This document shows positions 1,524 to 30,799 of a stretch of 32,000 nucleotides of DNA, piece after piece. Position 1 is the stretch's first letter; the number at the start of each line of letters is the position of its first letter. The translations under genes and the position numbers were made by a program. This stretch comes from Nevskia sp. (GTDB taxonomy: Bacteria > Pseudomonadota > Gammaproteobacteria > Nevskiales > Nevskiaceae), in contig JAKFUK010000001.1 of the NCBI GenBank assembly GCA_021732745.1, forward strand, positions 42,931 through 74,930, given 5' to 3'. The notes beneath the pieces are model-generated. The model had not been told where the DNA came from, made no database searches, and saw only the letters and a program-made list of their open reading frames with translations.

Positions 1524-1559
1524 TGTCCCGCCATTTTTTCCGTCGCTGAGCACGACCCG

Positions 1560-2777: not shown

Positions 2778-3219
2778 AGACCATCGGCATCGGCTTTCAC
2801 TTCGAGGATCTGCCCGTCGGCTTCCACTTCCGCAGCGCCGGCCGCACGCTGGCCGAGGCAGCTTCGTGAACCTGACCTGGCTCACCGAGGAAGTCTTCAC
2901 CAACCACGCCGCGCGCGAAGGCCTGTCCCTGCCCGCCAAGGTCGTGCCTGGTGTCCTGGTCATGAGCTTCGCCGAGGGCCTGCTCACCCCCGCCATCCAG
3001 CACACCGGCCTGGCATTCCTGCATGCCGATCTCGACGTGCGTGCACCCACCTGCGTGGGCGATACCATCCATGTCGAGTGCGAGGTCATCGAGGCCCGCA
3101 CCACCTCCAAGGGCGACCGCGGCCTGGTTCGCAGCCTCAATCGCGTGGTCAACCAGCACGGCAGGGATGTGCTGGTGTACAAGCCGCTGCGCCTGCTGCG
3201 CCGACGCGACGCCGCCTGA
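2774..3219 (+). pseudogene. MaoC-like (R)-specific enoyl-CoA hydratase/dehydratase, interrupted by a 1-nt frameshift near 2861-2862
   Basis: The N-terminal 31 codons (MKTIGIGFHFEDLPVGFHFRSAGRTLAEAA) end at TGA 2867-2869. The rest of the hot-dog domain (FVNLTWLTEEVFTNHA...GDTIHVECEVIEARTTSKGDRGLVRSLNRVVNQHGRDVLVY) continues in another frame from 2863. Total length is 446 nt, one short of 149 codons. Confidence 0.7.
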
Positions 3220-3253
3220 TCCATTCAACACGACAGACACACCCAGACGACAA

Positions 3254-5595: not shown

Positions 5596-5629
5596 ACCCA
5601 GCACCCCTCACCCAATCAAAGAACCGCAC

Positions 5630-7791: not shown

Positions 7792-7857
7792 TTTGGTTTT
7801 GCCTTCATCCGCATGCTGAGATTTCAACCCAGCCCACTCTCACAGGAACTACTGCAA

Positions 7858-9276: not shown

Positions 9277-10563
9277 TCAGTGAGACTGCGCGAGCTGCAA
9301 CTGCGTGAAGACAGGAACGATCGGGCCGAACACTTCCGCCATGTGCCTCTGACCTTTCGCGTCGAAGAAGAACAGCATGCCGCCGACGCGGCTGTCCACA
9401 TTGGTCAGGAAACTCACCAGCCGCTCGATCTCCCAGGCCGCATCGGTAGCCTCGATGCGCAGCGTCCGCTTCTCGCCGGGGGCGATCGGCGAGCTGTCAC
9501 TGAGCTTGAGACTGGAACCCGCAACCAGGTCTTTCGGGAACGAAGGGTCCACCCCGGCGACGGCAACGTCGAGCGACTTGTCCAGAAAGCGCAGATTGGC
9601 CGTGGTGAATTCCCCCAGCCGCATCGGCGATTCGGACTGGTTGGTGATCTCCACGTCGAGCCGCAGGCTGCGGCCCGGAACATCGTAGGTGGCATCCTTC
9701 ATCTCGACCGCCACCAGGGACGGCACCTGCGGCAGCGGCTTGGTCTTGAACGAACCCGCCTGCAGCGGCACCACGTATTCGTATTTTTGCGTGGTGTATC
9801 GATAACCGCCGATCACCACCACCAGCACCAGCACCAGCAGCCCGGCGGCGACACGATCATCGGTGCGCGTGATCAGCAGGTCCTCGCGTCCCTTCCGGAT
9901 GGCATTCCAGCGCGGCACGATCAGCGGCCGGCGGATCCACCAGACGATCCAGGCCACGGCGAGCAGGGCATAACCTGCCTGCCACCACTGCACGCGCGCG
10001 ACGCCGTAGTGCTGGAGGTCGTCGATCACCTCGCCGGTCATGGTCGTGACCGGCAGCTTGTAGTCCGCCGCGCTGCCGGTGACTTCGACCCAGTGACCGG
10101 GCCCGACGATGGGACCGGCACCGTGGACGTTGAGCACCGGATGGAGGTGCCAGCGGCCGGGAACACGGCCGGCCATCACCATCTTGAAGGGATAGTCGCG
10201 GCCGATTTCCAGTTGACGCACCGACTGCTGCGCCGGCATGTCGTTGATGTACGACTCCACGCGCGTCATCACCGCGCCGGGTGAGGCGTTGGACAGAAAG
10301 GCAAGCTCCGGCTTGGACGCGGCATCAGGCCAGTCCGTGAACAGATGGAATTTGCCCTCCACTGTCACCTTGTCGTTGACGCCGATCTTTTCGCTGGACC
10401 AGGTCACGTCATACCAGTGCACGGTGCGCGTGCGGATGTAAGGCTCGGTGGCACGCTCGCCGTGGGCGGCTGCGGGCAACGAAACCAGCGTGGTCGCAGC
10501 CGTCATTGCAGCGAGCAGGATCGACAGGCCAAAGCGCCGAAGCGACATGCGGTGCAGGCTCAT
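9277..10563 (-). CDS. pmoB: Copper membrane monooxygenase subunit B (PmoB/AmoB family)
   Basis: 428 aa counted from MSLHRMSLRRFGLSILL. The signal peptide ends AAA|HGERATEPYIRTRTVHWYDV. HxH pair in GRWHLHPVLNVHGAGPIVGPG. Two central TM helices (WWQAGYALLAVAWIVWWI and AAGLLVLVLVVVIGGY) and a C-terminal soluble domain. The ATG overlaps the pmoA stop (ATGA at 10563-10560). Confidence 0.9.
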   Translation of the reverse strand: MSLHRMSLRRFGLSILLAAMTAATTLVSLPAAAHGERATEPYIRTRTVHWYDVTWSSEKIGVNDKVTVEGKFHLFTDWPDAASKPELAFLSNASPGAVMTRVESYINDMPAQQSVRQLEIGRDYPFKMVMAGRVPGRWHLHPVLNVHGAGPIVGPGHWVEVTGSAADYKLPVTTMTGEVIDDLQHYGVARVQWWQAGYALLAVAWIVWWIRRPLIVPRWNAIRKGREDLLITRTDDRVAAGLLVLVLVVVIGGYRYTTQKYEYVVPLQAGSFKTKPLPQVPSLVAVEMKDATYDVPGRSLRLDVEITNQSESPMRLGEFTTANLRFLDKSLDVAVAGVDPSFPKDLVAGSSLKLSDSSPIAPGEKRTLRIEATDAAWEIERLVSFLTNVDSRVGGMLFFFDAKGQRHMAEVFGPIVPVFTQLQLAQSH

Positions 10564-11402
10564 GATGCCGCTCCCGGCTGCGCGGCCGCGGCACCGACCG
10601 CTTTCCCCGCAGCCTTCCCCTTGTTGCCGTAGATCAACTTGAAGCGCTCGCCGACCGGGAAAAACCTTGCGTTGCAGGCGAGCACGCCGAGGCCCCAGAA
10701 CATGTAGTACAGGAAGATGCACACGAACGCGGAGAAGAACGCCGAAACCCAGGTCGGCGTGTCGCCGAAGGTGCGCAGGGTGCCGCGTTCGATGATGCGG
10801 ATGTACTCCGGCGTGCCGGCACGCGGGAAGGTGTAGCCGATCAGGTCAGCGACCGAGGTCATGTCGCCCATGTTCATCACCGGCTGAAAATAGCCGGCCA
10901 TGTAGATCCAGTTGGCTGGATAGAACAGCAGGCCGTACAGCACCGCGCCGAACATGCCGGTCACCAGCCAGCTCCGCGACAGCACCAGGATGGCGTCTAG
11001 CACCAGCGCGCCCATCAGGCAGGTTCCAGGCACGACCAGACTCAAGGGAAAATAGGCCAGTCCCTGCCAGCTGTGGTAGCGCACGATCCAGGTGCCGAGC
11101 AGCAGCAGTAGCAGGCTCGCGGTGGCGCCGACCGGAAGACGAAACAGGTTCCAGAAAATGGCCTGGAACGAAGCGGCCATGATGATGGTGGTGATCGGGA
11201 TGATCAGGATCCAGTACTGGCGATCCTTCCAGTCGATGAAGAAATCCCAGTCGCCACCCAGCAGCAGGAAGCTGATGTGCGACACCGACCAGACCAGGAA
11301 GGCGGCTACAACGATGATGAGCACGTCCAGCGTGCGCGACCAGGGGATCGCCCGGGACGACAACTCGGATACTTTCAGAATCGCACGATCATTTTCAGTC
11401 AT
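10560..11402 (-). CDS. pmoA: Copper membrane monooxygenase subunit A (PmoA/AmoA family)
   Basis: 280 aa counted from MTENDRAILKV, with a GAGGAGG Shine-Dalgarno sequence (SD) 7 nt upstream. Hallmarks LLGGDWDFFIDWKDRQYW, WQGLAYFPLSLVVPG and GTPEYIRIIERGTLRTFGDTPTWVSAFFSAF. There is an extra Gly/Ala/Lys-rich C-terminal tail. Confidence 0.9.
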   Translation of the reverse strand: MTENDRAILKVSELSSRAIPWSRTLDVLIIVVAAFLVWSVSHISFLLLGGDWDFFIDWKDRQYWILIIPITTIIMAASFQAIFWNLFRLPVGATASLLLLLLGTWIVRYHSWQGLAYFPLSLVVPGTCLMGALVLDAILVLSRSWLVTGMFGAVLYGLLFYPANWIYMAGYFQPVMNMGDMTSVADLIGYTFPRAGTPEYIRIIERGTLRTFGDTPTWVSAFFSAFVCIFLYYMFWGLGVLACNARFFPVGERFKLIYGNKGKAAGKAVGAAAAQPGAAS

Positions 11403-11542
11403 TTGTCCCCTCCTCGGATTCATCTGCGTCTATCCATGGCGATGCCGACCGGCGCGCGGGACTCGCGACACCGTAATCGGCACCGTCATGGACGACAGCG
11501 TTTTGTTTTTCGGTATCGCGACCCGCGATGCGAAGTGGCGAC

Positions 11543-12337
11543 TCAGGCCGGATTTGCGTTGTCTGCCGTACCGCCGACTTCCTTGAACAGCTCCGCCATG
11601 CGGCCGATCACCTGGATGAACAGGCCACCCAGGGCGAGACCGGTCCAGCCCAGGATCGGAAAGCCCCAGTGCAGGGGATGGCTGAAGATTTCCTCGGTCA
11701 TCCAGAACGCGTGACCCCACTCGTTGAAGCCGAGGTTGGGCAGAATCAGACCTGGGCCGAGCACCGCCATGATCAGCGGCAGCGAGTAGCCACGAGCGAA
11801 CGCCGGGATGCGCGTGGTGGCATACAGCAGGCTGCTCACGCCGAACACGATGTACATCGGCACGCAGGCGTAGAACACCACGATGTGACTGGGTGTGAGC
11901 GCGGTATCGCGGATCACCGTCTGGTGCCAGGTGGCATCACCTTCGCCAAAGAAGCTGGCGATCCACAGGAACGAAAACGTGTACATCATGAACCAGGCGA
12001 TGAGGCCGAAATACCGCTTCAGCTCCGTCTCGCCGCTCATGCTGTCCATGTCGCGGTCGCGGGTGAACCACAGGTACATCCAGACGCACAGGCCGCTGCC
12101 GAAGATCAGCGGCACCTCGACCTTGAACAGTGTCATCCAGTACGTTGCAAATTCCGGCGACGTGGCGTCGAGTCCGTACTCGAACGAAAACGCACCCTGG
12201 TAAAGGCGAAGACCGGCGTATACCGCCAGCAACAGGCCCCAGCCAATGGCAACTGGCCCGAGGCTGAACATCTTGCGCTCCTTGGGAACACTGGAAGCCC
12301 GTGCGGACGGGATCGACGACGCCACTTGGATCGACAT
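11543..12337 (-). CDS. pmoC: Copper membrane monooxygenase subunit C (PmoC/AmoC family)
   Basis: 264 aa counted from MSIQVASSIP, with an AGGAGA SD 7 nt upstream. Hallmarks SPEFATYWM, GEGDATWHQTVIRDTALTPSHIV and PNLGFNEWGHAFWMTEEIFSHPLHWGF. Confidence 0.9.
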   Translation of the reverse strand: MSIQVASSIPSARASSVPKERKMFSLGPVAIGWGLLLAVYAGLRLYQGAFSFEYGLDATSPEFATYWMTLFKVEVPLIFGSGLCVWMYLWFTRDRDMDSMSGETELKRYFGLIAWFMMYTFSFLWIASFFGEGDATWHQTVIRDTALTPSHIVVFYACVPMYIVFGVSSLLYATTRIPAFARGYSLPLIMAVLGPGLILPNLGFNEWGHAFWMTEEIFSHPLHWGFPILGWTGLALGGLFIQVIGRMAELFKEVGGTADNANPA

Positions 12338-12570
12338 GCTTTGTCTCCTGATCAGCGGGGGGAAATCTGGCAGAAACCGGCCGGGTGCAAGGCGCAGCCT
12401 TTGGGAGCCGGGCGCAGGTCTTGTTGACGGCAAAGGCTAGTCGGGGCCGCAGTGACGCCGCGCGCGATGCTCTCCCGCGAATGGACCGACCGATGGATCG
12501 ATTCCGTCATTTTTTTGCTCCTCGCCGCGAGCCCCGTAAACGGGGTCTGTCGAGCTGACTAGAATCCATA

Positions 12571-12586: not shown

Positions 12587-12729
12587 CAGAACGCTGACGA
12601 ATGACATTCGGCCGTGCAGCAGTCCCGTTATCAGCCTGCTGGGACCGAATACCCGCCGCGCGCCGCCGCAGCCCGGACAGATCGCCGCGGGACGGGGGCG
12701 CCGGCTCGCGCACTGCTATCGTGTACCCG

Positions 12730-13350
12730 ATGAAGAATCCCAAGTCGTCAGGACGACCCGCCGTCAGACCGCCACGCAGGCGCATGCACCGCGAGGCGCG
12801 TACACGCCAGTTGCTCGACTGCGCCATCACGGCGTTCGCCGAGCGCGGCACCGCTCGGGCCGGTCACGCCGATGTTGCGCGCCTCGCCCCGGTATCGGTC
12901 GCCACGGTCTTCGAATACTTCCCCACCCGCGAACTCCTGCTCGACGCGGTGCTCAGGGACATCGAGCAATTCCTGTATGCGGTGGTGGCGCTCGGGACCA
13001 CCGCCGCCGATACACGCGGCCGCGTGCTGGAAATCTTCCATGCGTTCCAAGGCTGCGTAGACGATCAGCCCCAGCACATGCGGGTCTGGCTGGATTGGAG
13101 CACGTCGATCCGCGAGGACGTCTGGCCGCATTACGTGGAGGTGCAGGAGCGCATCATCGGCATGTTCGAGCAGATGATCGAAGCCGGCCGCGCTGCGGGC
13201 TCGATCAGTTCCGCGGTCATCGCCGGCGACGCCGCGCGCATCCTGGTGGGCCAGGCGCACATGATCGTGATGATGCGATTCGCTCACGTCGATCAGGCGA
13301 CCGTGGTCCGGTTCATCGATCACATGATCGACAGCGCCCTTCCCCGCTGA
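12730..13350 (+). CDS. TetR/AcrR family transcriptional regulator
   Basis: 206 aa counted from MKNPKSSGRP. N-terminal HTH region RTRQLLDCAITAFAERGTARAGHADVARLAPVSVATVFEYFPTRELLLDAVL. Divergent from pmoCAB. The start codon is uncertain because there is no clear SD. Confidence 0.8.
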   Translation: MKNPKSSGRPAVRPPRRRMHREARTRQLLDCAITAFAERGTARAGHADVARLAPVSVATVFEYFPTRELLLDAVLRDIEQFLYAVVALGTTAADTRGRVLEIFHAFQGCVDDQPQHMRVWLDWSTSIREDVWPHYVEVQERIIGMFEQMIEAGRAAGSISSAVIAGDAARILVGQAHMIVMMRFAHVDQATVVRFIDHMIDSALPR

Positions 13351-16551: not shown

Positions 16552-16618
16552 CAGCTGCCGAATACACAATGCGAAACGATTCTGACTGCACCGCGCGATG
16601 CGCGGTGGGAGAACCATC

Positions 16619-18076
16619 ATGACGGATACCCGAGCCTTCAACTCCGCCGACCTGCACTCACTCGAGGGCTGGGGCGGCGGACCGGAGATGAGTCACTTCG
16701 AAGGCGTGATGTGGCGCCTGGACGTCAACCCGCACATGCGTTCGACCATGACCGGGGTGGAGATCCTCGACCACGCGCCGGACTGGCAGCGTCTGCGCGC
16801 CGCCCACGAGCGCCTCACGGCGTCGATTCCGCGCTTCAGGCAGCGCGTGGTGGAACCCCTGTTCGGTCTGGGCACGCCGCACTGGGTGGATGACCCGGAC
16901 TTTTCGCTCGACTACCACCTGCGCCGCCTGCGCGTGCCGGAACCGGCCACGCCGCGTCAGTTGCTGGAACAGGCGCAGTGGATCGCGATGACGCCCTTCG
17001 ACCGCGCCCGCCCGCCGTGGGAGGTGATCCTGATCGAGGGCCTGGCCGACGGCCGCGCGGCCTACGTGCTGAAAATGCACCACGCCCTGTCCGACGGCCA
17101 CGGCATGATGCAGTTGCTCTCGCAGGCACACAGCCACAGCGCCCAACCAGGACCGCCGGTGGAACAGCCGGCGCGCCAGCCCGCCGCCCCGCTGCCCTCC
17201 ACCGGTGCGGTGCTGGGGCGGCAAGTGCGCGCAGGCCTGTCGCGACTGCCGCAGCAGACGCGCAAGCTGGTCGCCGACGTGGCGCAGGGCCTGCAGCGTC
17301 CTGACGCGGCGCGCGAGGCACTGCGATATGTGCAGTCAGCAGCGCGCATCCTCGGCCGCAAGCCGGCACCCAAGTCGCCGCTGATCGCCGGCCGCAGCCT
17401 GTCATGGCATTTCGACGCGCTGGATTTTCCGCTGGACGATTTCAAGGCCGCCGCCAAGCGTGCCGGTGCCAGCCTCAACGATGCCTACATCGCCGGTATC
17501 GCCGGCGGGTTCCGGCGCTATCACGAGCAACTCGGCCAGCCCATCGCCAAGTTGCCCATCGTGTTCCCCGTCAGCGTACGCACCGCGGCGGACGGCCTCG
17601 GCGGCAACCGTTTCGTCGGTGGCCAATTCGACGCGCCGCTGGACGAACCCGATCCGGTCGCCTGCATGAAGACGGTCGGCGCGTTCGTGGAGACACTGCG
17701 CGCGGAGCCGGCGCTCGACGTGCTGTTGCGCGTGATGCCGATTGTCGGCCGCCTGCCCACGCCGCTGCTCGGCAAGATGATGTCCGGCGTCACTGCCGCC
17801 CAGGACGTGCAGGCCACCAACGTGCCGGGGCTGCGCCGCCCGGTGTACATCGCCGGTGCGAGAGTCACCCACTTCTTCGGCTTCGGTCCCCTGCCCGGCT
17901 GCGCCGCCATGTTCGCGATGCTCTCGCACGACCAGCGCTGCTGCATCGGCATCAACACCGACGCCGCCGCCGTGCGCGAGCCGGATCGCCTGGTGGAATG
18001 CCTGCGCCTGAGCTTCGACGAGATCATGGGCATTCCCGGAATCACCGAGGTCTTCGCCGGGCCGGGCAAGCCGTAG
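16619..18076 (+). CDS. Wax ester synthase / diacylglycerol O-acyltransferase (WS/DGAT) family
   Basis: 485 aa counted from MTDTRAF, with a GGGAGA SD 8 nt upstream. Catalytic HHxxxDG motif as MHHALSDGHG. Conserved PLNRARPPW-like segment TPFDRARPPWEVILIEGL and C-terminal NVPG motif (QATNVPGLRRPVYIAG). Confidence 0.85.
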   Translation: MTDTRAFNSADLHSLEGWGGGPEMSHFEGVMWRLDVNPHMRSTMTGVEILDHAPDWQRLRAAHERLTASIPRFRQRVVEPLFGLGTPHWVDDPDFSLDYHLRRLRVPEPATPRQLLEQAQWIAMTPFDRARPPWEVILIEGLADGRAAYVLKMHHALSDGHGMMQLLSQAHSHSAQPGPPVEQPARQPAAPLPSTGAVLGRQVRAGLSRLPQQTRKLVADVAQGLQRPDAAREALRYVQSAARILGRKPAPKSPLIAGRSLSWHFDALDFPLDDFKAAAKRAGASLNDAYIAGIAGGFRRYHEQLGQPIAKLPIVFPVSVRTAADGLGGNRFVGGQFDAPLDEPDPVACMKTVGAFVETLRAEPALDVLLRVMPIVGRLPTPLLGKMMSGVTAAQDVQATNVPGLRRPVYIAGARVTHFFGFGPLPGCAAMFAMLSHDQRCCIGINTDAAAVREPDRLVECLRLSFDEIMGIPGITEVFAGPGKP

Positions 18077-18091
18077 GGAACTTCGTCGGCC

Positions 18092-18127
18092 GGGAGTCGG
18101 CACGACACTGACGTCGTGCCAACTCCC
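18092..18127 (+). terminator. Long GC-rich stem-loop immediately after WS/DGAT; no U-tract
   Basis: GGGAGT-c-GGCACGAC [actgac] GTCGTGCC-a-ACTCCC gives 14 bp of stem with one mismatch. It starts 16 nt after the TAG at 18074-18076 and is followed by an A-run (aacaaaaaag). Confidence 0.4.
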
Positions 18128-18165
18128 GCGGCCGAACAAAAAAGAAGCCTCTTTGCCCCTCGCAA

Positions 18166-18185
18166 TCTAACAGGTGTTTGTTAGA
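18166..18185. promoter_or_regulatory. Perfect 7-bp inverted repeat TCTAACA-N6-TGTTAGA upstream of the 11-gene operon; candidate operator
   Basis: tctaacaggtgtttgttaga lies 75 nt upstream of the ATG at 18260. It shares TCTAACANNTGTTTG (13 of 15 positions) and TTAGACTGA (9 of 9) with the 15199-15240 region. Confidence 0.45.
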
Positions 18186-18259: not shown

Positions 18260-19723
18260 ATGATCGGCATCACCTGTTACGGCGCCTATGTGCCAAGACT
18301 GCGGCTCAGCCGTGCCGCGGCGGCCCAGGCCAACGCATGGGCCAATCCGGGCCTGCTCGCCCAGGCGCGCGGCGAGCGCTCGATGGCCAACTGGGACGAG
18401 GACAGCCTGACGATGGCGGTGGAAGCCGCACGCGACGCGCTGGCCGGCCGCAACACGGACGGCATCGGCGCCCTCTACTTCGGCTCCACCACGCATCCCT
18501 TCGCCGACCGCCAGAACGCGGGCCTGGTCGCCTCCGCGCTCGACCTGCCGGAATCGATCAGTTCCTCCGACTTCGGCGGCGCGCAGAAGGCCGGCACCGC
18601 CGCGCTGATCGCAGCACTCGACCGCGCGACGGCCGGACGCCCGGGCGAGGCCCTGGTGGTGGCCGCCGAACATCGCCGGGCGCGTCCCGGCAGCGCCCAG
18701 GAGTTGCAGTACGGCGATGCCGCCGCTGCCTTCACGATCGGCAATTCCGCAGTGATTGCCGAGTTCCTCGGCAGCCACAGCGTGTCGGTGGATTTCGTCG
18801 ATCATTACCGCGCGACGGGCCAGGAATTCGATTACATCTGGGAAGAGCGCTGGCTGCGCGACGAGGCGTTCCAGAAGTGGGTGCCGGCCGCGGTGACAGC
18901 CGGGCTGGAAAAAATTGGGATCGCCCCCGGCAGCATCCATCACTTCGTGCTGGCCGAGCCGGTCGCCAAGCTCTCCGCGCTGGTCGCCAAGCGTTGCGGC
19001 ATCACCGAGACCGCCATCGCCGACAGCCTGCTCGGCGTGGTCGGACATGCCGGCTCGGCGCACGCCCCGCTGATGCTTGCCGCGGCACTGCAGAAGGCGC
19101 AAGCCGGACAGACCATCGTGGTCGTCGGCTTTGGCCAGGGTTGCGACGTGCTGGCCTTCCGCACCACCGCCGCGCTGGGCGAACTGCCCGCGCGCAGCGG
19201 CGTCGCCGGCAGTCTCAAGCGCCGCAAGGAAGAAAAGAATTACCCGAAGTTCCAGTCCTTCAACGAGACCGTCTCGCCGGAAAAAGGTCTGCGCGGCGAA
19301 GCCAATCCGCAGACCGCGCTGTCGGCGATGTACCGCAACCGCCGCATGCTGTCCGGGCTGGTCGGGGGCAGTTGCACGAAGTGCGGCACCGCGCAGTTCC
19401 CGCCCGCCGACATCTGCGTCAATCCGTCCTGCCATCACCAGGGACCGATGCAGCCGTACCGCTTCGCCGACGAGGCGGGCCGCATCAAGACCTGGTCCGC
19501 GGACTGGCTCACCTACACGCCCGACCCGCCCGCGCACTACGGCATGGTGGAGTTCGAGCGCGGCGGTCGCTTCGTCGCCGACATCACCGACTGGGATCTC
19601 GGCAAGGTCGAGGTCGGACAGCCGGTCCGCATGGTGTTCCGCGTGCGCGGGCGCGATGCGCAACGCGGCATGGTTCGCTATTTCTGGAAGGCCGCGCCGC
19701 TGGCCGGCACGGGGGAGCACTGA
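18260..19723 (+). CDS. Fusion protein: an HMG-CoA synthase/KAS III-like domain (catalytic triad substituted) plus a C-terminal DUF35 zinc-ribbon/OB-fold domain
   Basis: 487 aa. The N-terminal part aligns by eye with HMGCS (GITCYGAYVPRLRL, NWDEDSLTMAVEAARDAL, GFGQGCDV). However it has GSTTHPF where GTES is expected, GGAQKAGTAAL where EACxGxTA is expected, and LAEPVAK where FHxPxxK is expected. The C-terminal part has CTKC...CVNPSC plus an OB-fold (YGMVEFERGGRFVADITD...VGQPVRMVF). Confidence 0.8.
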   Translation: MIGITCYGAYVPRLRLSRAAAAQANAWANPGLLAQARGERSMANWDEDSLTMAVEAARDALAGRNTDGIGALYFGSTTHPFADRQNAGLVASALDLPESISSSDFGGAQKAGTAALIAALDRATAGRPGEALVVAAEHRRARPGSAQELQYGDAAAAFTIGNSAVIAEFLGSHSVSVDFVDHYRATGQEFDYIWEERWLRDEAFQKWVPAAVTAGLEKIGIAPGSIHHFVLAEPVAKLSALVAKRCGITETAIADSLLGVVGHAGSAHAPLMLAAALQKAQAGQTIVVVGFGQGCDVLAFRTTAALGELPARSGVAGSLKRRKEEKNYPKFQSFNETVSPEKGLRGEANPQTALSAMYRNRRMLSGLVGGSCTKCGTAQFPPADICVNPSCHHQGPMQPYRFADEAGRIKTWSADWLTYTPDPPAHYGMVEFERGGRFVADITDWDLGKVEVGQPVRMVFRVRGRDAQRGMVRYFWKAAPLAGTGEH

Positions 19724-19724
19724 G

Positions 19725-20930
19725 ATGAGCAGCGGAATTCGCGACAAGGTCGCCATCCTGGGAATGGGCTGCTCGCGCTTCGGCGAGCGCTGGGACATGG
19801 GTGCCGAGGAACTGATGGTGGAGTCCTTCACCGAGGCTCTCACCGACGCCGGCATCGGCCGCGAGCAGGTTCAGGCCGCCTGGCTGGGCTCCTGCATGGA
19901 CGAGGTCAACATCGGCAAGTCGGCGCTGCCGGCCTCGATGGCCCTGCGCCTGAACAATATCCCGGTGACGCGAGTCGAGAACTACTGCGCCACCGGCACC
20001 GAGGCCTTTCGCGGCGCGGTGTATGCGGTGGCGTCCGGTGCCTGCGACATCGCGCTCGCCATCGGCGTGGAAAAACTCAAGGACACCGGCTACGGCGGAT
20101 TGCCGGGGCTGGATGTCGGCTCGATGCCGCCGCTGTGGTGGCCGAACCTGTCGGCACCCGGTGTGTTCGCACAGGTCGCGAGCGCCTACATGAACCGCTA
20201 CAAGGTGCCGCGCGATGTGCTCAAGCGCGCGCTCGCGGAAATTTCCGCCAAGAGCCACGCCAACGGCGCCAAGAACCCGAAGGCGCATCTGCGCAACCCG
20301 GTGAGCTGCGACACCATCATGGCCTCGCCGATGATCGCCGAGCCGCTGGGCCTGTTCGACTGCTGCGGCGTGTCCGACGGCTCGGCCGCGGCCATCGTCA
20401 CCACGCCGGAGATCGCCAGGTCGCTGGGCAAGCATCCCGACCAGATGGTCACGGTCAAGGCGCTGCAACTCGCGCTGTCGAATGGTTCCGAAGGCGGCTA
20501 CAACGACTGGGACGGCTCCTACATCCACACCACGCGCGTCGCCGCGAAGCGTGCTTACGCCGAAGCCGGCATCACCCGGCCGCGCGATGAAATCTCGATG
20601 TTCGAGGTTCACGACTGCTTCTCGATCACCGAACTGGTGACGATGGAGGACCTGTCACTGTCCTCCGATGGCGGCGCGATCAAGGACGTGATGGACGGCT
20701 TCTACAACGCCGACGGCAAGATTCCCTGCCAGATCGACGGCGGCCTCAAGTGCTTCGGCCATCCGATCGGCGCGTCCGGCATCCGGATGGTCTACGAGAT
20801 GTACCTGCAACTGCTCGGCCGCGCCGGCGAGCGTCAGCTCAAGAACCCGCGCTACGGCCTGACCCACAACCTCGGTGGCTTTCCGCACCAGAACGTCGTC
20901 GGCATTTCCATCGTCGGACGCTACCAATGA
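19725..20930 (+). CDS. SCP-x / archaeal-type thiolase (PhlC-like), with catalytic residues present
   Basis: 401 aa counted from MSSGIRDKVAILGMGCSRFGE, with a GGGGGAG SD upstream. Nucleophile Cys in VENYCATGTEAF, plus VHDCFS and KCFGHPIGASG. It starts 1 nt after the upstream stop. Confidence 0.85.
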   Translation: MSSGIRDKVAILGMGCSRFGERWDMGAEELMVESFTEALTDAGIGREQVQAAWLGSCMDEVNIGKSALPASMALRLNNIPVTRVENYCATGTEAFRGAVYAVASGACDIALAIGVEKLKDTGYGGLPGLDVGSMPPLWWPNLSAPGVFAQVASAYMNRYKVPRDVLKRALAEISAKSHANGAKNPKAHLRNPVSCDTIMASPMIAEPLGLFDCCGVSDGSAAAIVTTPEIARSLGKHPDQMVTVKALQLALSNGSEGGYNDWDGSYIHTTRVAAKRAYAEAGITRPRDEISMFEVHDCFSITELVTMEDLSLSSDGGAIKDVMDGFYNADGKIPCQIDGGLKCFGHPIGASGIRMVYEMYLQLLGRAGERQLKNPRYGLTHNLGGFPHQNVVGISIVGRYQ

Positions 20931-20964: not shown

Positions 20965-22143
20965 ATGAAACCACTCGCGGCCATTGTCGCCGTGTCCGAG
21001 ATGAAGCCCGGACGCTACCCGAACTACAACGGCATGGAGATGTACCGGCAGGTCATCTCGCAGTTCCTGCGCGAATGGCCGCAACTGCGGCCCTCGGATA
21101 TCGGTGGCCTGCTGTCAGCACCCGCCGGCATGGCCTCGGCCGACGGCACCGATGTGTTCGCGCACGAAAAGATCTCGGAAGAACTCGGCATCGAGCCGAC
21201 CTTCAGCGAGACCATCAATGCCGGCGGCGGCACCTACGCGCTGATGCTGATCCGCGCGTCCCTGGCCATCGAGCGCGGACTCTGCGATTCCGTGCTCTGC
21301 CTGGGTGCCGGGCGCTTCCCCAACGTGGGCAGCGGCATGGCCGAGATGATGAGCAAGCTGATCAGCCATCCCGAGTTCGAATATCCGTACGGCACCTATA
21401 TCCCGCCGATCTTCGCGCTCAACGCCACGCGCCACATGCACGAATTCGGCACCACGCGCGAGCAGCTCGCGCAGGTCGCGGTGTCGCAGCGCGAATGGTC
21501 GCTGCTGCATCCGGATGCGCTGATGGCCCCGCAGGGGCGGCTGACGATCGACAAGGTGCTGTCCTCGCGCCCGATCACCTACCCGTTCAATCTGCTCGAC
21601 TGCTCGGTGCCCAGCGAAGGCGGATCGGCGGTGCTGGTGGTGTCGCCGAAGATCGCCCAGCGCTACGCCAAGAAACCCTGCTTCCTGTATGGCTTCGGCG
21701 AGAAGCACACTCATTCCAGCATCAGCCAGGCGCATGACCTGACCACGCTCGGCTCCAGGGAAACCTCGGCGCAGGCCTACCGCATGGCCGGTGTCGGACC
21801 CAAGGACATGGACTTCGCCCAGCTCTACGACTCCTTCAGCATCAACCCGATCATCTACGCCGAAGATCTTGGCCTCTGCGCCAAGGGCCAGGGCGGCGCG
21901 TTCTTCGCCGGCGGCCGCACCGCGCCGGGCGGCGAATTCCCGGTCAATACCTATGGCGGGCTGATGTCCTTCGGCCACGTCGGCGATGCCTCCGGCCAGA
22001 CCATGATCGTGGAAGCGGCACGCCAGATCATGGGTATTGCCGGCGAAGCACGCCAGTTGAAGAAAGCCGATCTCGGCGTCGTTCACTGCTACGGCGGAAT
22101 GATGTCCGAGCACGCCACCCTCGTTCTCGGGAGCGCGTCATGA
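20965..22143 (+). CDS. Thiolase-like protein lacking the catalytic Cys/His residues; candidate non-thiolytic enzyme or scaffold
   Basis: 392 aa. Collinear with the preceding thiolase (GLCDSVLCLGAGR against GACDIALAIGVEK). However it has INAGGGTYA where NYCATGTEA stands, LYDSFS where VHDCFS stands, and MSFGHVGDASG where KCFGHPIGASG stands. Confidence 0.75.
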   Translation: MKPLAAIVAVSEMKPGRYPNYNGMEMYRQVISQFLREWPQLRPSDIGGLLSAPAGMASADGTDVFAHEKISEELGIEPTFSETINAGGGTYALMLIRASLAIERGLCDSVLCLGAGRFPNVGSGMAEMMSKLISHPEFEYPYGTYIPPIFALNATRHMHEFGTTREQLAQVAVSQREWSLLHPDALMAPQGRLTIDKVLSSRPITYPFNLLDCSVPSEGGSAVLVVSPKIAQRYAKKPCFLYGFGEKHTHSSISQAHDLTTLGSRETSAQAYRMAGVGPKDMDFAQLYDSFSINPIIYAEDLGLCAKGQGGAFFAGGRTAPGGEFPVNTYGGLMSFGHVGDASGQTMIVEAARQIMGIAGEARQLKKADLGVVHCYGGMMSEHATLVLGSAS

Positions 22144-22556
22144 GCAACCCCGCCGTCAACCCCAAGCCGATCCCCGAAATCAACGCCCACAGCAAGCCCT
22201 ACTGGGACGGCGCACAGCGCGGCGAGCTGATGATTCAGCGCTGCCGCGGCACCGGCAAGCCCTTCATGTACGCGCGCTGCTGGAGCCCCTTCGACTTCTC
22301 GCCCGACCCCATCTGGGAAAAGGCCAGCGGGCTGGGCACGGTGTTCAGCTACACCGTCGTGTACCAGCCGCCGTATGCGGCATTCAAGGCCGACTGCCCG
22401 TTCGTGATGGCCATCATCCAGCTCGACGAAGGTCCGCAGATGATGAGCAACGTCCTCAACTGCGATCCGGAATCCGTGCGCATCGGGATGAAGGTCAAGG
22501 TCTGCTTCGAGACCCGCAGCGGCGGCTTCAAGATTCCGCAGTTCGAACCGGCCTGA
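22140..22556 (+). CDS. DUF35 OB-fold (acyl-CoA-associated) protein with a degenerate zinc ribbon
   Basis: 138 aa. The start overlaps the upstream stop (ATGA). N-terminal SKPYWDGAQRGELMIQRC...ARC holds only two Cys instead of CxxC...CxxC. The OB-fold core is GTVFSYTVVYQP...FVMAIIQLDEGPQMMSNVL...GMKVKVCFE. Confidence 0.75.
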   Translation: MSNPAVNPKPIPEINAHSKPYWDGAQRGELMIQRCRGTGKPFMYARCWSPFDFSPDPIWEKASGLGTVFSYTVVYQPPYAAFKADCPFVMAIIQLDEGPQMMSNVLNCDPESVRIGMKVKVCFETRSGGFKIPQFEPA

Positions 22557-24255: not shown

Positions 24256-26036
24256 ATGAAACCTGCTTCCCTACGCATCGGCTGCGCCTCCGGCTTCTGG
24301 GGCGACACCGAGTACGCCGCCGCCCAGCTGGTGACCAGAGGCAACATCGATGTGCTGGTCTTCGACTACCTGGCCGAAGTCACCATGTCCCTGCTGATCC
24401 GGGTCAAGGCCAAGGATCCCAACGCCGGTTTTGCGCCGGACTTCGTGACCACGCTCAAGCCGCTGCTCAAGGAGATCAAGGCGCGCGGCATCAAGGTGGT
24501 GAGCAATGCCGGCGGCGTCAATCCCGCCGCCTGCCGCGAAGCGCTGGCCAGGGCGGCACAGGCCGAGGGCGTGGAGCTGAAGATCGCCGCCGTGCTGGGC
24601 GATGACCTGCTGCCGCAGACGGAAAGCGCACGCGGTGAAGGCACGCGCGAGATGTTCTCCGGCCAGGCGATGCCGGCAAGGATCATGAGCGCCAATGCCT
24701 ATCTCGGTGCCTTCCCGATCGCCGCCGCGCTGGAAGCCGGCGCGGACATCGTCGTGACCGGCCGCTGTGTCGACAGCGCGGTGGTGCTCGGCCCATTGAT
24801 CCAGGCCTTCGGCTGGAAGCAGCACGACTACGATCAATTGGCCCAGGGCAGCCTGGCCGGCCACATCATCGAATGCGGCGCGCAGTGCACTGGCGGCAAC
24901 TACACCGACTGGCATCTGGTCAAGGGCTGGGACGACATGGGCTTCCCGATCGCCGACTGCTCGCCCGACGGCAGCTTCGTGATCGAAAAGCCCGCGGGCT
25001 CCGGCGGCCTGATCGTGCCGTCCACGGTGGGCGAGCAGATGGTCTACGAGATCGGCGATCCGCGCGCCTACCTGCTGCCCGACGTGAACTGCGACTTCAC
25101 CCAGGTGACGCTCGAACAGGTCGGCGAGCAGCGCGTGCGCGTCGCGGGTGCCAGGGGCAGCGCACCCACGCCACACTGCAAGGTCAGCGCGACCTATCTC
25201 GACGGCTTCCGCGCCACCGCCATGTTCATGATCGGCGGCATCGACGCCTCGACCAAGGGCACGCGCACCGCCGAGGCGCTGCTCGCGCGCTGCCGGCGTC
25301 TGTTCGCCGAGCGCAGCCTGGGAGACTTCAGCGAAACGAGCATCGAGGTCCTTGGTGCCGAAGCGACCTACGGCCCGCATGCGCGGGTGCAGCCGCGCGA
25401 GGTAATGGTGAAGATCGGCGCGCGTCACCCGAACAAGGATGCGCTGGACATCTTCTCCCGCGAGATGGCGCCGATGGCGCTGGCCACCTCCCCCGGCATC
25501 ACCGGCTTCCTCGGCGGCCGTCCCAAGGTGCAGCCGGTGGTGCGCCTGTTCTCCTACCTGTGGCCGAAATCGATGATCCCGGTGCGCCTGGAACTCGATG
25601 GCCAGGACCTGGCCTGCCCGCAGATGAGCGGCCTGCCTTTCGATCCCGCAAAGCTCCCCGACATCGGTGGACCGCTACCGGCAGCCGCGGCGTTCGCCGA
25701 TGGCACGCGCCTGGTGCCGCTGGTGCAGCTCGCCTACGGCCGCAGCGGCGACAAGGGCGACTCCGCGAACATCGGCATCCTCGCGCGCAAGGCCGACTAC
25801 CTGCCCTACATCCGCGCGGCGCTGACGGCTGATGCGGTCGCGAAATGGTTTGCCCACCGCGCCGAAGGGCCGGTGCATCGCTGGGACATGCCCGGTGTCC
25901 TGGGCCTGAATTTCCTGCTGGAAAAAGCGCTCGGCGGCGGCGGCATGGCCTCGATCCGCATTGATCCCCAGGGCAAGGCCTACGCGCAGATGCTGCTCGA
26001 CTTCCCCGTTCCCGTGCCTGCCGGGCTTGTGACCGA

Positions 26037-26040
<4 letters not shown>
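24256..26040 (+). CDS. DUF1446 / AtuA-like (acyclic terpene utilisation A family) protein
   Basis: 594 aa. The N-terminus is LRIGCASGFWGDTEYAAAQLVTRGNIDVLVFDYLAEVTMSLL, and the length of roughly 590 aa matches my recollection of AtuA-type proteins. Confidence 0.75.
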
Positions 26041-27518
<1,478 letters not shown>

Positions 27519-27528
27519 ACAATCGACC

Positions 27529-28035
27529 ATGAAAAAAATTCTAGCCATCGACGGCGAGCAGTACGCCTGCACGCTGACACGCACACCCGGCAGCCTGCGC
27601 CTGCAGGCCGGCGAACGCAGCTTCGACTGCGCGCTCGACGCGCTCGGCGACGGCCGCTACCGCGTGCGCGCCGGCGATGCGCGGCGCGAAGCGCTGATTG
27701 CCCAGCACGGTGATCAGGTCTGGATCCACCTGGATGGCCGCACGCACACGATCCAGCGCATAAACCCGCTCGACCTCCTCGCCGCCAGCGGCCGCGGCGG
27801 CGCGGACAGCGCCCTGTCGCCGATGCCCGGCACCATCCTCACCGTGCAGGTGAAGGTCGGCGAGACGGTGAAATCCGGCCAGGTCCTGCTCACCATGGAA
27901 AGCATGAAACTGGAAGTGACCATCACTGCGCCGCACGACGGCGAGATCGCCGAAGTGCTGTGCGCACCCGGACAGAGCGTGCCGGTCAAGGCCACCCTGG
28001 TGCGCTTCGCGGCAAAGGCGGAGGCCACCTCATGA
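27529..28035 (+). CDS. BT-like domain plus biotin carboxyl carrier (biotinyl/lipoyl) domain protein
   Basis: 168 aa. C-terminal biotinyl domain PMPGTILTVQVKVGETVKSGQVLLTMESMKLEVTITAPHDGEI, with the candidate biotinyl-Lys codon at 27907-27909. No obvious SD. The first codons are AT-rich (atgaaaaaaattcta). Confidence 0.8.
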   Translation: MKKILAIDGEQYACTLTRTPGSLRLQAGERSFDCALDALGDGRYRVRAGDARREALIAQHGDQVWIHLDGRTHTIQRINPLDLLAASGRGGADSALSPMPGTILTVQVKVGETVKSGQVLLTMESMKLEVTITAPHDGEIAEVLCAPGQSVPVKATLVRFAAKAEATS

Positions 28036-29630
28036 TGCAGCGTATCGAAACGCGGATATCGCCGGCCTCGACCGCGTTCCGCGCCAACAGCGTGGCGATG
28101 CAGCGCATCTGCGGCGACTTCAAGGCCCTGCAGGAACGCATCCGTCACGAGCGCCCGCAACGCGACATCGAACGCCTGCGGCGGCAGAAGAAACTGCTGG
28201 TGCGCGAGCGGCTGGAATTGCTGCTCGACCCAGGCACGCCGTTTCTCGAACTCTCCAGCATCGCGGCCTACGATCAATTCAACGGCGAGGCGCCGGGCGC
28301 GAACGTCATCGCCGGCATCGGCGTGGTCGGCGGCCGCGAGGTGATGATCCACGCCGACGATTCCAGCAACAAGGGCGGCGCCTGGTATCTCTTGTCGGCG
28401 CCGAAGATCGTGCGCGCGCTGGAAATCGCCATCGAGAACCGCCTGCCCGTCGTACACCTCTGCGACAGTGCGGGCGGCTATCTGGAAGACCTCTCCGGCG
28501 TGTATGTGATGGGCGGCCGCGTGTTCCGTCACCAGTGCATCCTGTCGAAGATGGGCATTCCGCAGGTCGCCGTGGTGCTCGGACACTGCACCGCCGGTGG
28601 CGCCTACGTGCCCGCCCTGTGCGAACACACGATCATGGTGCGCGGCACCGGCGCGGTGTTTCTCGGCGGCCCGCCGCTGGTGAAGGCCGCGACCGGCGAG
28701 GAAGTCACGGTCGATGCGCTCGGCGGTGCCGACATGCATACCTCGGTGTCCGGCGTGGCGGACTACCCGGTGGACAGCGAGGAAGAAGGCATCGCGCTGG
28801 CCCGCGCCATCGTCTCCAGCTTCTCGCAGCCGAAGAAGCACTTCGACTGGGTGGATGCCGAGGCGCCCTACTACGATCCGCGCGAGCTGTACGGCATCGT
28901 TCCGGTGGACTACAAGACCCAGTTCGACATGCGCGAGGTGATCGCGCGCATGGTCGATGCCAGCCGCTTCCAGGAATACCAGCCGAACTACGGCACGACC
29001 CTGGTCTGCGGATGGGCGCGGCTGTGGGGCTGCAAGGTGGGCCTGCTCGGCAACAACGGCGTGCTGTTCTCCGACAGCTCGCTCAAGGCCGCGCACTTCA
29101 TCCAGCTCTGCAACCAGATGGGCACGCCGATGATCTTCCTGCAGAACACCACCGGCTACATGATCGGGCGCGAGTACGAGGAGCGCGGCATCACCAAGGA
29201 CGGTGCCAAGATGCTGATGGCACAGGCCGGCTCCGAAGTGCCCAAGCTCACCGTCGTCACCAGCGGCGCGTTCGGCGCCGGCTACTACGGCATGTGCGGC
29301 CGCTCCTGGGACCCGCGCATGATCTTCTCCTGGCCGCAGGCCAAGATGGGCGTGATGGGGCCGGAGCAGGCCGGCAACACGCTGGCCGACGTCAAGCTGC
29401 GCCAGTTGCGCCGTGATCGTCCCGAGGCCGGCGACGAGGAAGTGGCCGAGCTGCGCAAGCGCACGCGCGAGAAATCCGAGCGTGAGACCAGCACCCTGTG
29501 GTTCTCCGCGCGCTGCCAGGACGACGGCGTGCTCGATCCGCTCGATACGCGCAACGCGCTCGGCATCGCGCTGTCCTGCGCGGCCAACGTGCCGCTCGCC
29601 GAGCAGCGCTATGGCGTGTTCCGGATGTGA
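28032..29630 (+). CDS. Acyl-CoA carboxylase carboxyltransferase (beta) subunit, methylcrotonyl-/geranyl-CoA carboxylase type
   Basis: 532 aa counted from MMQRIETR. ATGA overlap with the BCCP stop, and a GGAGG SD upstream. KLLVRERLELLLDPGTPFLELS, GGREVMIHADDSSNKGGAW, HCTAGGAYVPALC and FLGGPPLVKAATGE are present. Confidence 0.9.
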   Translation: MMQRIETRISPASTAFRANSVAMQRICGDFKALQERIRHERPQRDIERLRRQKKLLVRERLELLLDPGTPFLELSSIAAYDQFNGEAPGANVIAGIGVVGGREVMIHADDSSNKGGAWYLLSAPKIVRALEIAIENRLPVVHLCDSAGGYLEDLSGVYVMGGRVFRHQCILSKMGIPQVAVVLGHCTAGGAYVPALCEHTIMVRGTGAVFLGGPPLVKAATGEEVTVDALGGADMHTSVSGVADYPVDSEEEGIALARAIVSSFSQPKKHFDWVDAEAPYYDPRELYGIVPVDYKTQFDMREVIARMVDASRFQEYQPNYGTTLVCGWARLWGCKVGLLGNNGVLFSDSSLKAAHFIQLCNQMGTPMIFLQNTTGYMIGREYEERGITKDGAKMLMAQAGSEVPKLTVVTSGAFGAGYYGMCGRSWDPRMIFSWPQAKMGVMGPEQAGNTLADVKLRQLRRDRPEAGDEEVAELRKRTREKSERETSTLWFSARCQDDGVLDPLDTRNALGIALSCAANVPLAEQRYGVFRM

Positions 29631-29635
29631 TTGAC

Positions 29636-30799
29636 ATGAACGACACTGCCTCCAGTGAAGACGATGCGCTGATCGACGCCATCGAGCGCTTCCTCGCGGG
29701 CGAGGTGCGGCCGGTGGCCATCGCCCTCGAACAGGCCGACGAATATCCGAAGGCCATCGTCGAGCAGATGCGCGACATGGGCCTGTTCGGCGCCATCATT
29801 CCCGAGGCCTATGGCGGACTGGGGCTCAGCGCGCAGACCTACGCGCGCCTGATCGAGACGATCGCGGCCGAGTGGATGTCGCTGTCCGGCATCATCAACT
29901 CGCACCTGATCATGGCTTCGGCGGTGCTGCGTTTCGGCACGGAAGCTCAGAAGGAATATTTTCTGCCCCGCTTCGCCAGGGCCGAGCTGCGCGGCGGCAT
30001 CGCGCTGACCGAGCCGGACTGCGGCACCGACCTGCAGGCCATCCGCACCGTCGCCCGCCGCGAAGGCGAGCACTACCTCGTCAACGGCGCCAAGACCTGG
30101 ATCACCAACGGGCTGCACGGCAACTGCTTCGCGCTGCTGGTCAAGACCGACCCCAAGGCCGACCCGCGCCACCGCGGCATGAGCCTGTTCATTGCCGAAA
30201 AAGGCCCCGGCTTCTCGGTGCCGCGCAAGCTGCCGAAACTGGGCTACCGCGGCATCGACACCGTGGAGATGCTGTTCCAGGACTACCGCATTCCGGCCGA
30301 GCGCCTGGTCGGCGGCGTCGAGGGCCGCGGACTGCAGCAGATTCTCGGCGGCCTGGAACTGGGCCGCATCAACGTCGCCGCGCGCGGGGTCGGCGTCGCG
30401 CGCTCGGCTTACGAGGAGGCGCTGAGTTATTCGCAGCAGCGCAAGACCTTCGGCAAGCCGATCTGCGAGCACCAGGCGATCCAGCTCAAGCTGGCCGACA
30501 TGGCCACGCGCGTGCAGGCCGCCCGGCTGCTGGTGGACTCCGCCGCCCGCGCCTACGACGCCGGACGGCGCTGCGATCTGGAGGCGGGCATGGCCAAGCT
30601 GTTCGCCACCGAAGCCGCGATGGAAAACGCCGCCGAATCTCTGCGCATCCACGGCGCCTACGGCTATTCGCGCGAAGTGCGGGTGGAACGGCTGTACCGG
30701 GACGCGCCCCTGCTGGCGATCGGCGAAGGCACCAATGAAATGCAGCGCCTGATCATCGCGCGCCGCCTGCTCGACGCGGCGGCCCCTCGCCAGCAATAG
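29636..30799 (+). CDS. Acyl-CoA dehydrogenase (canonical; isovaleryl-/citronellyl-CoA dehydrogenase-like)
   Basis: 387 aa counted from MNDTASSEDD. IALTEPDCGTDL and GAKTWITNG are present. The catalytic Glu is retained in PLLAIGEGTNEMQRLIIAR. Confidence 0.9.
   Translation: MNDTASSEDDALIDAIERFLAGEVRPVAIALEQADEYPKAIVEQMRDMGLFGAIIPEAYGGLGLSAQTYARLIETIAAEWMSLSGIINSHLIMASAVLRFGTEAQKEYFLPRFARAELRGGIALTEPDCGTDLQAIRTVARREGEHYLVNGAKTWITNGLHGNCFALLVKTDPKADPRHRGMSLFIAEKGPGFSVPRKLPKLGYRGIDTVEMLFQDYRIPAERLVGGVEGRGLQQILGGLELGRINVAARGVGVARSAYEEALSYSQQRKTFGKPICEHQAIQLKLADMATRVQAARLLVDSAARAYDAGRRCDLEAGMAKLFATEAAMENAAESLRIHGAYGYSREVRVERLYRDAPLLAIGEGTNEMQRLIIARRLLDAAAPRQQ

Follow-up and report, generated by a model that had tools for sequence, protein, structure and literature searches.

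A catalytically silent HMG-CoA-synthase-like protein fused to DUF35 as the predicted partner of an SCP-x-type thiolase in Nevskia sp.

Introduction

A stretch of 32,000 nucleotides (nt) from Nevskia sp. (GenBank assembly GCA_021732745.1, contig JAKFUK010000001.1, positions 42,931 to 74,930 of the forward strand; hereafter the window) contains a gene whose product resembles 3-hydroxy-3-methylglutaryl-coenzyme A (HMG-CoA) synthases (HMGCS or HMGS), carries a C-terminal DUF35 module and is encoded immediately upstream of a thiolase. In an initial annotation of this DNA the synthase-like part was described as deprived of its catalytic residues, which raises the question of what a dead synthase fused to DUF35 does beside an intact thiolase. 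That annotation proposed a silent fused scaffold that partners with the thiolase, and regarded the architecture as uncharacterised. The analysis reported here makes it likely that the fusion protein is a non-catalytic subunit, in which DUF35 would clamp a pseudo-synthase dimer to the thiolase; the thiolase would be the sole catalyst and the dead domain would add stability and part of the reaction chamber.

The precedents invoked for this idea, an archaeal complex in which DUF35 bridges thiolase and HMGCS and the acyltransferase PhlABC of Pseudomonas, agree with published accounts (PMC12960953, PMC12329534). The MucABC complex was recently solved and compared with PhlABC and the archaeal complex by Liao et al. 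(Nat Commun, 30 January 2026; PMC12960953). In the same work a fused system from Pseudomonas fluorescens, PfACAT/HMGS-DUF35, was expressed and assayed. Its HMGS unit lacks the E-C-H-N tetrad, and its thiolase (ACAT) retains the Cys, HDxF and GHx motifs. It produced neither HMG-CoA nor acetoacetyl-CoA from acetyl-CoA, but cleaved acetoacetyl-CoA thiolytically, an activity nearly abolished by the substitution H294Y. Beyond Liao et al., no paper on the fused form was found in the literature on DUF35/thiolase catabolism or under the older names COG1545, COG3425 and UPF0219. The architecture is widespread and already known, with a published example characterised biochemically in January 2026.

Domain layout and loss of the catalytic tetrad

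The features of the locus are collected in Table 1. The fusion gene shows a codon bias of the coding type (GC content at third codon positions, 0.87). In its product Pfam recognised ACP_syn_III_C at amino acids (aa) 216–296, zf-ChsH2 at 367–392 and OB_ChsH2_C at 407–461, with PF12172 and PF01796 both above cut-off. The protein had been described as collinear with HMG-CoA synthases, and the archaeal HMGCS model NF003274 indeed aligned with aa 1–303 (model positions 2–307 of 347; E 1.6e-57). The score of 195 bits versus a cut-off of 244 does not reach the equivalog threshold for HMG-CoA synthase (EC 2.3.3.10), nor does that of TIGR00748 (155 versus 353). Because NF003274 remains below its cut-off, no curated family claims the fusion protein.

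Table 1. Coordinates of the features discussed, numbered from the first nucleotide of the window.
Feature	Position	Strand	Basis and remarks
Pseudo-HMG-CoA-synthase/DUF35 fusion gene	18260..19723	+	487 aa; Pfam, NCBIfam, phmmer
HMGCS/KAS III-like thiolase-fold domain, without catalytic tetrad	18260..19264	+	aa 1-335; alignments, AlphaFold/Foldseek
Flexible interdomain linker	19265..19339	+	~aa 336-360; low pLDDT, low conservation
DUF35 module: zinc ribbon (aa 366-395) and OB fold (aa 396-483)	19355..19708	+	PF12172, PF01796
SCP-x/archaeal-type thiolase, predicted catalytic partner	19725..20930	+	NF004810, PDB matches
Cys-less thiolase-fold protein, similar to the Sal/Ltp2/SLP group	20965..22143	+	motifs, PDB matches
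Stand-alone DUF35 protein, 138 aa	22140..22556	+	PF01796 3e-24, PF12172 1.6e-6
Perfect palindrome TCTAACA-N6-TGTTAGA, likely operator	18166..18185	+	unique in window, conserved

The AlphaFold model of the fusion protein (mean predicted local distance difference test score, pLDDT, 82.7; predicted template modelling score, pTM, 0.87) consisted of two folded domains, with a disordered linker of pLDDT below 50 at aa 340–359 and β-strands spanning aa 368–480. The top ranks in Foldseek were occupied by the HMGCS subunit of the Methanothermococcus complex (6esq_I, TM 0.86), PhlA (0.82–0.83) and MucA (0.81–0.84). A profile built from 48 family members found as best matches PhlA (3.7e-49), the PhlA-type 9skh_A, archaeal HMGCS (1.9e-45) and MucA (9vbo_A), and its C-terminus matched the archaeal DUF35 subunit. 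When searched separately, the DUF35 module matched archaeal DUF35 (6esq_E, E 1e-11) and PhlB (5m3k_B). Of the three solved tripartite complexes, it is thus to the HMGCS, PhlA and MucA subunits that the N-terminal fold is nearest, and to the DUF35 subunits that the C-terminus is. The four cysteines noticed in the latter at the outset (CTKC...CVNPSC) are C372, C375, C386 and C391, as befits a rubredoxin-like ribbon. They are invariant in the family alignment (A1), and about 90% of 118 distant representatives keep them.

The catalytic positions were read from a phmmer alignment with 6esq_I (E 1e-34), in which the motifs are free of gaps and aligned with high posterior probability, and the substituted codons were checked on the DNA. 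The Glu of GSESHPY is replaced by T77 in GSTTHPF (codon 18488–18490), the Cys of EFACKAGT by Q109 in GGAQKAGT (18584–18586), and the His of VFHQPNGK by A232 in VLAEPVAK (18953–18955). To these three substitutions, which had been recognised before, a fourth can be added, since the Asn that completes the tetrad, in LGNTYS, is replaced by H263 in VGHAGS (19046–19048). The 48-member profile gave the same register at the catalytic positions, and the Cys/Glu/His triad was not restored by profile alignment. In the same phmmer alignment, PhlA likewise lacks the tetrad residues.

This loss extends to the whole family. None of 81 genome-locus sequences (51–97% identity) carries Glu, Cys or His at the respective catalytic positions, which are occupied by T/S, Q/L/M and P/A, respectively, with D/E/H/L at the Asn position. 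Glu, Cys and His are equally absent from their positions in all 118 representatives of 50%-identity clusters (31–51% identity), among which the replacements of Cys (L/Q/R/M and others) and of His (P/Y/A/S and others) are variable. The absence of the triad residues from both sets of sequences indicates that catalysis was lost ancestrally to the fused family, and the variation at the Cys and His positions disfavours a replacement catalytic set.

These data bear on the alternative that the HMGCS-like domain is a non-canonical enzyme, for instance a lyase or hydrolase acting on 3-hydroxy-3-alkylglutaryl-CoA and working with the thiolase in the direction opposite to that of the archaeal channelling complex. 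Conservation of the domain is high, with many invariant polar or charged residues in A1 (for example R13, R15, D46-E47-D48, D83-R84 and D178-x-x-D181-H182-x-R184), and the operon includes AtuA and a geranyl-CoA-carboxylase-like enzyme, with a product class resembling HMG-CoA. However, the residues standing in for the triad across about 200 aligned members are mostly non-nucleophilic as well as variable, no HMG-CoA was made by the published fused complex (PMC12960953), and most family members are found outside an Atu-like context. We regard this alternative as decidedly unlikely.

The predicted partner thiolase and the conserved gene pair

The TGA stop of the fusion gene (19721–19723) is separated by 1 nt from the ATG at 19725 of the thiolase gene, whose ribosome-binding site, GGGGGAG, sits within the 3' end of the fusion gene. 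The encoded protein is of the SCP-x type with its nucleophile intact, as had been proposed. With 673 bits it exceeded the NF004810 cut-off of 403, and in the PDB it came closest to 7yvy_A and the thiolase of the archaeal complex, 6esq_A (6e-50). C88 lies in NYCATG (19986–19988), HDCF at aa 296–299 (20610–20621) and CFGH at aa 343–346 (20751–20762), so that the GHx motif is kept as G345-H346-P. The Cys, HDCF and CFGH motifs recur without exception in 67 partner thiolases.

To assess how strictly the two genes go together, 80 genome loci were recovered from Nevskiales, Rhodocyclaceae, many Alphaproteobacteria and others, of which 66 were informative, having at least 1.4 kb of DNA downstream of the fusion gene. 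A thiolase gene followed on the same strand in 64 of these 66, mostly 2–230 nt away. Plasmid annotations from Variovorax, Sphingomonas, Azoarcus and Rhodococcus show it as well, and the pairing spans several classes and phyla. Across the same distant genomes the thiolase is 69.6% identical to that of the window, and the fusion protein about 53% (53–54% in the domains and 42% in the linker). The higher conservation of the thiolase is the pattern expected of a catalytic subunit versus a constrained non-catalytic partner.

The motifs of the thiolase also weigh on a second alternative, namely that the pair is a Friedel-Crafts C-acyltransferase of the PhlABC/MucABC type acting on a small-molecule acceptor. 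PhlA is the best match of the family profile, and PhlA and MucA are tetrad-less as well. By contrast, the HDCF motif is kept in the window thiolase and in 67 of 67 partners, whereas PhlC and MucB have lost HDxF (PMC12960953). PhlC matches the partner thiolase over its C-terminal third only, and no polyketide synthase (PKS) or non-ribosomal peptide synthetase (NRPS) genes were detected in the 32-kb window by a Pfam scan of the open reading frames picked as likely genes. Moreover, the published fused complex shows thiolase, not acyltransferase, behaviour (PMC12960953). An acyltransferase of this kind is extremely improbable here.

Family size and gene contexts

Among 5.8 billion proteins searched there are more than 4,264 homologues of the fusion protein. 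The best 120 are all 453–527 aa long and all have precomputed DUF35 domain hits. In an exhaustive search of 50%-identity representatives, 3,216 matches were obtained, with 584 clusters at E<1e-30; the top 150 representatives are nearly all 465–495 aa long and align over their full length at identities as low as 31%. This census of HMGCS-like/DUF35 fusions, with over 4,000 homologues close to 485 aa in length and full-length matches at such low identity, rules out a frameshift or an assembly artefact. An apparent 905-aa read-through of the fusion gene into the thiolase at one locus (L049) was rejected because the TGA stop is present; the tblastn match had extended beyond it. The long 'open reading frames' of two others (L018 and L048) probably have the same cause, which affects C-terminal tails and leaves the motif counts unchanged.

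Three cluster representatives from the 50%-identity search, P0125, P0127 and P0154, have extra C-terminal domains: two SCP2 domains (722 aa), a short-chain dehydrogenase/reductase (SDR) plus SCP2 (911 aa) or an SDR alone (800 aa). Such fusions tie the pseudo-synthase/DUF35 family to β-oxidation of the type carried out by multifunctional enzyme type 2 (MFE-2) and SCPx.

Gene neighbourhoods tell a similar story. On the Variovorax and Sphingomonas plasmids the order is SDR, MaoC hydratase, fusion, thiolase, and in Variovorax an acyl-CoA dehydrogenase and a CoA transferase come next. In Reyranella soli (L046, 7986–12668) a five-gene set comprises fusion, thiolase, a protein like the N-terminal part of MFE-2 hydratase 2, MaoC dehydratase and SDR, and about 40 related loci have an SDR gene after that of the thiolase, on the same strand. 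None of the 80 genome loci showed the arrangement of Variovorax and Sphingomonas, with MaoC immediately before the fusion gene; in these loci hydratase and SDR come after the thiolase instead. In Azoarcus the pair adjoins genes for acetyl-CoA hydrolase/transferase, electron transfer flavoprotein, SDR, MaoC and enoyl-CoA hydratase. On a plasmid of Rhodococcus qingshengii (L084, 4103–12583), a family member with 32% identity is encoded in the order CoA ligase, two-subunit ring-hydroxylating dioxygenase, fusion, thiolase, hydratase, dehydrogenase. This layout recalls the ibuprofen ipf cluster, in which the SCP-x thiolase comes with a bare DUF35 protein. Taken with the SDR and SCP2 fusions, these neighbourhoods suggest that the pair supplies the thiolase step in a β-oxidation module resembling MFE-2/SCPx.

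Such contexts can be set against the interpretation given by Liao et al. (PMC12960953), who surveyed about 1,000 bacterial HMGS/ACAT/DUF35 loci and regard the fused complex as an intermediate unrecruited to any pathway; it would be an evolutionary leftover, a mevalonate-type complex that was inactivated and no longer serves its original purpose. In their survey 1,001 of 1,030 loci were without secondary-metabolism neighbours, and generic thiolysis of acetoacetyl-CoA was the only activity found. A leftover is nonetheless difficult to reconcile with a family so large and old, which counts 584 clusters at E<1e-30 and keeps its full-length architecture down to 31% identity, with the clear constraint on both domains, with the location of the pair in β-oxidation-type operons of Alpha-, Beta- and Gammaproteobacteria and Actinobacteria, and with the fusion of SDR or SCP2 to some members. 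In the window, in addition, the pair heads an operon preceded by a conserved putative operator. We consider this explanation unlikely.

The Nevskia operon and its surroundings

The fusion and thiolase genes are followed by those of a Cys-less thiolase-like protein, a stand-alone DUF35 protein, an acyl-CoA dehydrogenase, a 4HBT thioesterase, AtuA, biotin carboxylase, biotin carboxyl carrier protein (BCCP), carboxyltransferase and a second dehydrogenase. The closest genomes are those of Panacagrimonas (97%), Polycyclovorans (95%) and Nevskia, and this extended operon is conserved within the Nevskiales group only.

The palindrome listed in Table 1 is located 75 nt upstream of the fusion ATG, inside a 183-nt intergenic region. 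It occurs once in the window, the number of matches expected by chance being 0, and is kept upstream of the orthologous gene in five Nevskiales loci (L001, L002, L003, L004 and L012) whose flanks diverge, and is degenerate in a sixth (L005). It is a likely operator in the promoter region of the fusion operon, and a TetR-family protein encoded in the window (12601–13350) is perhaps its regulator. A sigma-70 scan upstream of the fusion gene retrieved no consensus promoter, such a scan being uninformative at 67% GC. An inverted repeat (18091–18128) with 16-nt arms, 94% complementary, and a 6-nt loop comes just past the end of the wax-ester synthase gene (16598–18076), and an A-rich run follows it. 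The repeat may form a terminator-like hairpin that separates this gene from the fusion operon.

The Cys-less protein lacks both catalytic Cys residues of thiolases, with G88 in place of the nucleophile, YDSF for HDCF and SFGH for CFGH. Its PDB matches were 4u4e_A (2.5e-74), 9myr_A (5e-53) and Ltp2 (6ok1_A, 4e-32). The motif YDCY has been reported for CtSal (PMC12329534), and 9myr_A carries it. The stand-alone DUF35 protein has only two Cys in its ribbon region, and the start of its gene overlaps the end of the Cys-less gene by 4 nt (ATGA), an overlap which suggests that the two form a coupled pair. From their motifs they are probably a retro-aldolase pair of the Sal/Ltp2 type, with Ser where Sal has its essential Cys. 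The Cys-less paralogue co-occurs with the fusion in Nevskiales only.

The presence of two thiolase-fold proteins and two DUF35 modules opens the possibility of a cross-pairing, in which the fusion would partner the Cys-less protein and the stand-alone DUF35 the active thiolase, or of a mixed assembly of the four proteins. The four genes are contiguous and tightly spaced in the window and in L001, L003, L004, L005 and L012, and DUF35 domains are known partners of Sal/Ltp2 aldolases (PMC12329534). However, the fusion-thiolase pair is kept in dozens of genomes that have neither the Cys-less paralogue nor an extra DUF35, and the 4-nt overlap argues for coupling of the Cys-less protein to the stand-alone DUF35. 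Cross-pairing is accordingly very improbable, and the assignment of the fusion to the active thiolase is retained.

The window is densely filled with genes of acyl-CoA catabolism. Genes for AtuA with a ferredoxin-like domain, biotin carboxylase, BCCP, carboxyltransferase and acyl-CoA dehydrogenase lie directly downstream at 24256–30799 (+), in the same orientation, and form an acyclic-terpene-utilisation-like set, which hints at degradation of 3-methyl-branched acyl-CoAs via carboxylation. Upstream of the pair there are genes for wax-ester synthase, a MaoC hydratase, a dehydrogenase and the TetR regulator, and an amoC/amoA/amoB-type operon for a copper membrane monooxygenase at 9277–12433 (−; Pfam E 1e-77 to 1e-142), amid acyl-CoA catabolic genes. 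This enzyme is presumably a hydrocarbon monooxygenase and not an ammonia or methane monooxygenase. A further run at 36–8643 (+), encoding acyl-CoA ligase, family III CoA-transferase, acyl-CoA dehydrogenase, MmgE/PrpD, a CitE/HpcH-like lyase and enoyl-CoA hydratase, resembles itaconate or methylcitrate-type handling of C5 dicarboxylates.

Discussion

In the mechanism proposed, the HMGCS-like domain, devoid of the Glu/Cys/His/Asn tetrad, would be joined through a flexible tether of about 25 residues to DUF35, which would clamp the dimeric pseudo-synthase to the adjacent SCP-x-type thiolase as DUF35 does in 6ESQ, 5MG5 and 9VBT. The thiolase alone would carry out the CoA-dependent thiolytic cleavage of a 3-ketoacyl-CoA, and the dead domain would provide stability or solubility and probably form part of a shared CoA/substrate chamber. 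Of the initial proposal, the silent fused scaffold that partners the thiolase holds up, given the family-wide loss of the triad, the pairing of the genes at 64 of 66 loci and the assays on a homologous architecture. By contrast, the claim that the architecture was uncharacterised has to be abandoned, because the window pair shows the motif pattern of the P. fluorescens pair (PMC12960953).

With regard to the substrate, the operon content (a Sal/Ltp2-like candidate, AtuA, carboxylase and dehydrogenases) makes the thiolase step for methyl-branched (isoprenoid-type) or bulky acyl-CoAs the most likely job, and a role in degrading methyl-branched or isoprenoid-type acyl-CoAs is suggested on that ground. 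More tentatively, and with less than even probability, the pair could be a thiolase unit dedicated to a β-oxidation system that is widespread in bacteria, corresponds to peroxisomal MFE-2/SCPx and handles methyl-branched or bulky acyl-CoAs; the dead domain would shape substrate access. In the Nevskiales island it might then operate in series with the Sal/Ltp2-like retro-aldolase and its DUF35, AtuA and the carboxylase on isoprenoid-type hydrocarbons, once the nearby copper monooxygenase or P450 has oxidised them.

Several points weigh against the scaffold mechanism or its extension to a substrate. What was observed for the two proteins of the window is a pairing of their genes, from which we infer a physical complex. 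The likeness to the P. fluorescens pair is one of architecture and of motifs as described in PMC12960953, and the in vitro substrate published there, acetoacetyl-CoA, says little about the natural one. The HMGCS-like domain is well conserved and may have a role other than that of a scaffold, such as ligand binding or regulation. Finally, the indications about the substrate are local and indirect, because the Atu-like neighbours are conserved only within Nevskiales. What the dead domain does, and which class of substrate is cleaved, are likewise inferred.

The practical consequences concern thousands of bacterial genomes, in which the current names of these proteins ('HMG-CoA synthase family protein', 'OB-fold domain-containing protein', 'KAS III C-terminal domain-containing protein', 'acetyl-CoA acetyltransferase') are misleading or carry little information. 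Recognition of the first gene as a dead scaffold and of the second as the catalyst averts false calls of a mevalonate pathway. It also draws attention to a thiolase with a specialised role in catabolism, which may act on branched alkanoates, terpenoids or xenobiotic side chains. The gene contexts collected here offer concrete candidates for the natural substrate, and the published view of an unrecruited intermediate seems too pessimistic.

Comparison with known systems

The closest counterpart is PfACAT/HMGS-DUF35, which shares with the window pair the fused HMGS-DUF35, the absence of the tetrad, a thiolase with Cys, HDxF and GHx, and the lack of PKS or NRPS neighbours; its catalytic His 294 corresponds to H296 here. 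The two differ in that genomic context and natural substrate are undefined for the P. fluorescens system, whereas the window pair heads a catabolic operon.

The archaeal thiolase/HMGCS/DUF35 complex (6ESQ) provides the best single-sequence and structural match to the N-terminal domain (E 1e-34, TM 0.86), and its DUF35 and thiolase are among the best matches to the C-terminal module and to the partner, both thiolases being of the HDxF type. However, its HMGCS is active (E82/C114/H238/N270) and its DUF35 is a separate polypeptide, whereas here the synthase is dead and DUF35 is fused. The archaeal complex is also biosynthetic, channelling acetoacetyl-CoA in the mevalonate pathway, in contrast to the catabolic context of the window.

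PhlABC (5M3K/5MG5) and MucABC (9VBO/9VBT) have in common with the window pair a tetrad-less HMGS-like subunit, a DUF35 bridge and catalysis confined to the Cys of the thiolase-like subunit. They differ in their lost HDxF motif, their phenolic or tetramic acceptors, their location in secondary-metabolite clusters and their separate DUF35; the window thiolase keeps HDCF and has β-oxidation neighbours.

The benzoylsuccinyl-CoA thiolase BbsAB (7PXP) likewise belongs to the SCP2-type thiolases of catabolism, has HDxF and depends on a DUF35 partner, and BbsB matches the window thiolase at 7e-38, but BbsA is a bare DUF35 protein without a pseudo-synthase domain. The steroid side-chain aldolases ChsH2(DUF35)-Ltp2 and Shy(DUF35)-Sal, which concern chiefly the second pair here (20965–22556), also exemplify a DUF35 fused to another enzyme domain and recruiting a thiolase-fold protein. 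In these, the domain joined to DUF35 is a MaoC hydratase, and the thiolase-fold protein recruited is no active thiolase but a Cys-less retro-aldolase.

The peroxisomal SCPx/MFE-2 system of eukaryotes combines an SCP-x-type thiolase with an MFE-2-type hydratase and an SDR dehydrogenase, without pseudo-HMGS or DUF35. Its likeness to the family described here lies in this combination and in the SCP2 domains fused to some members of the latter.

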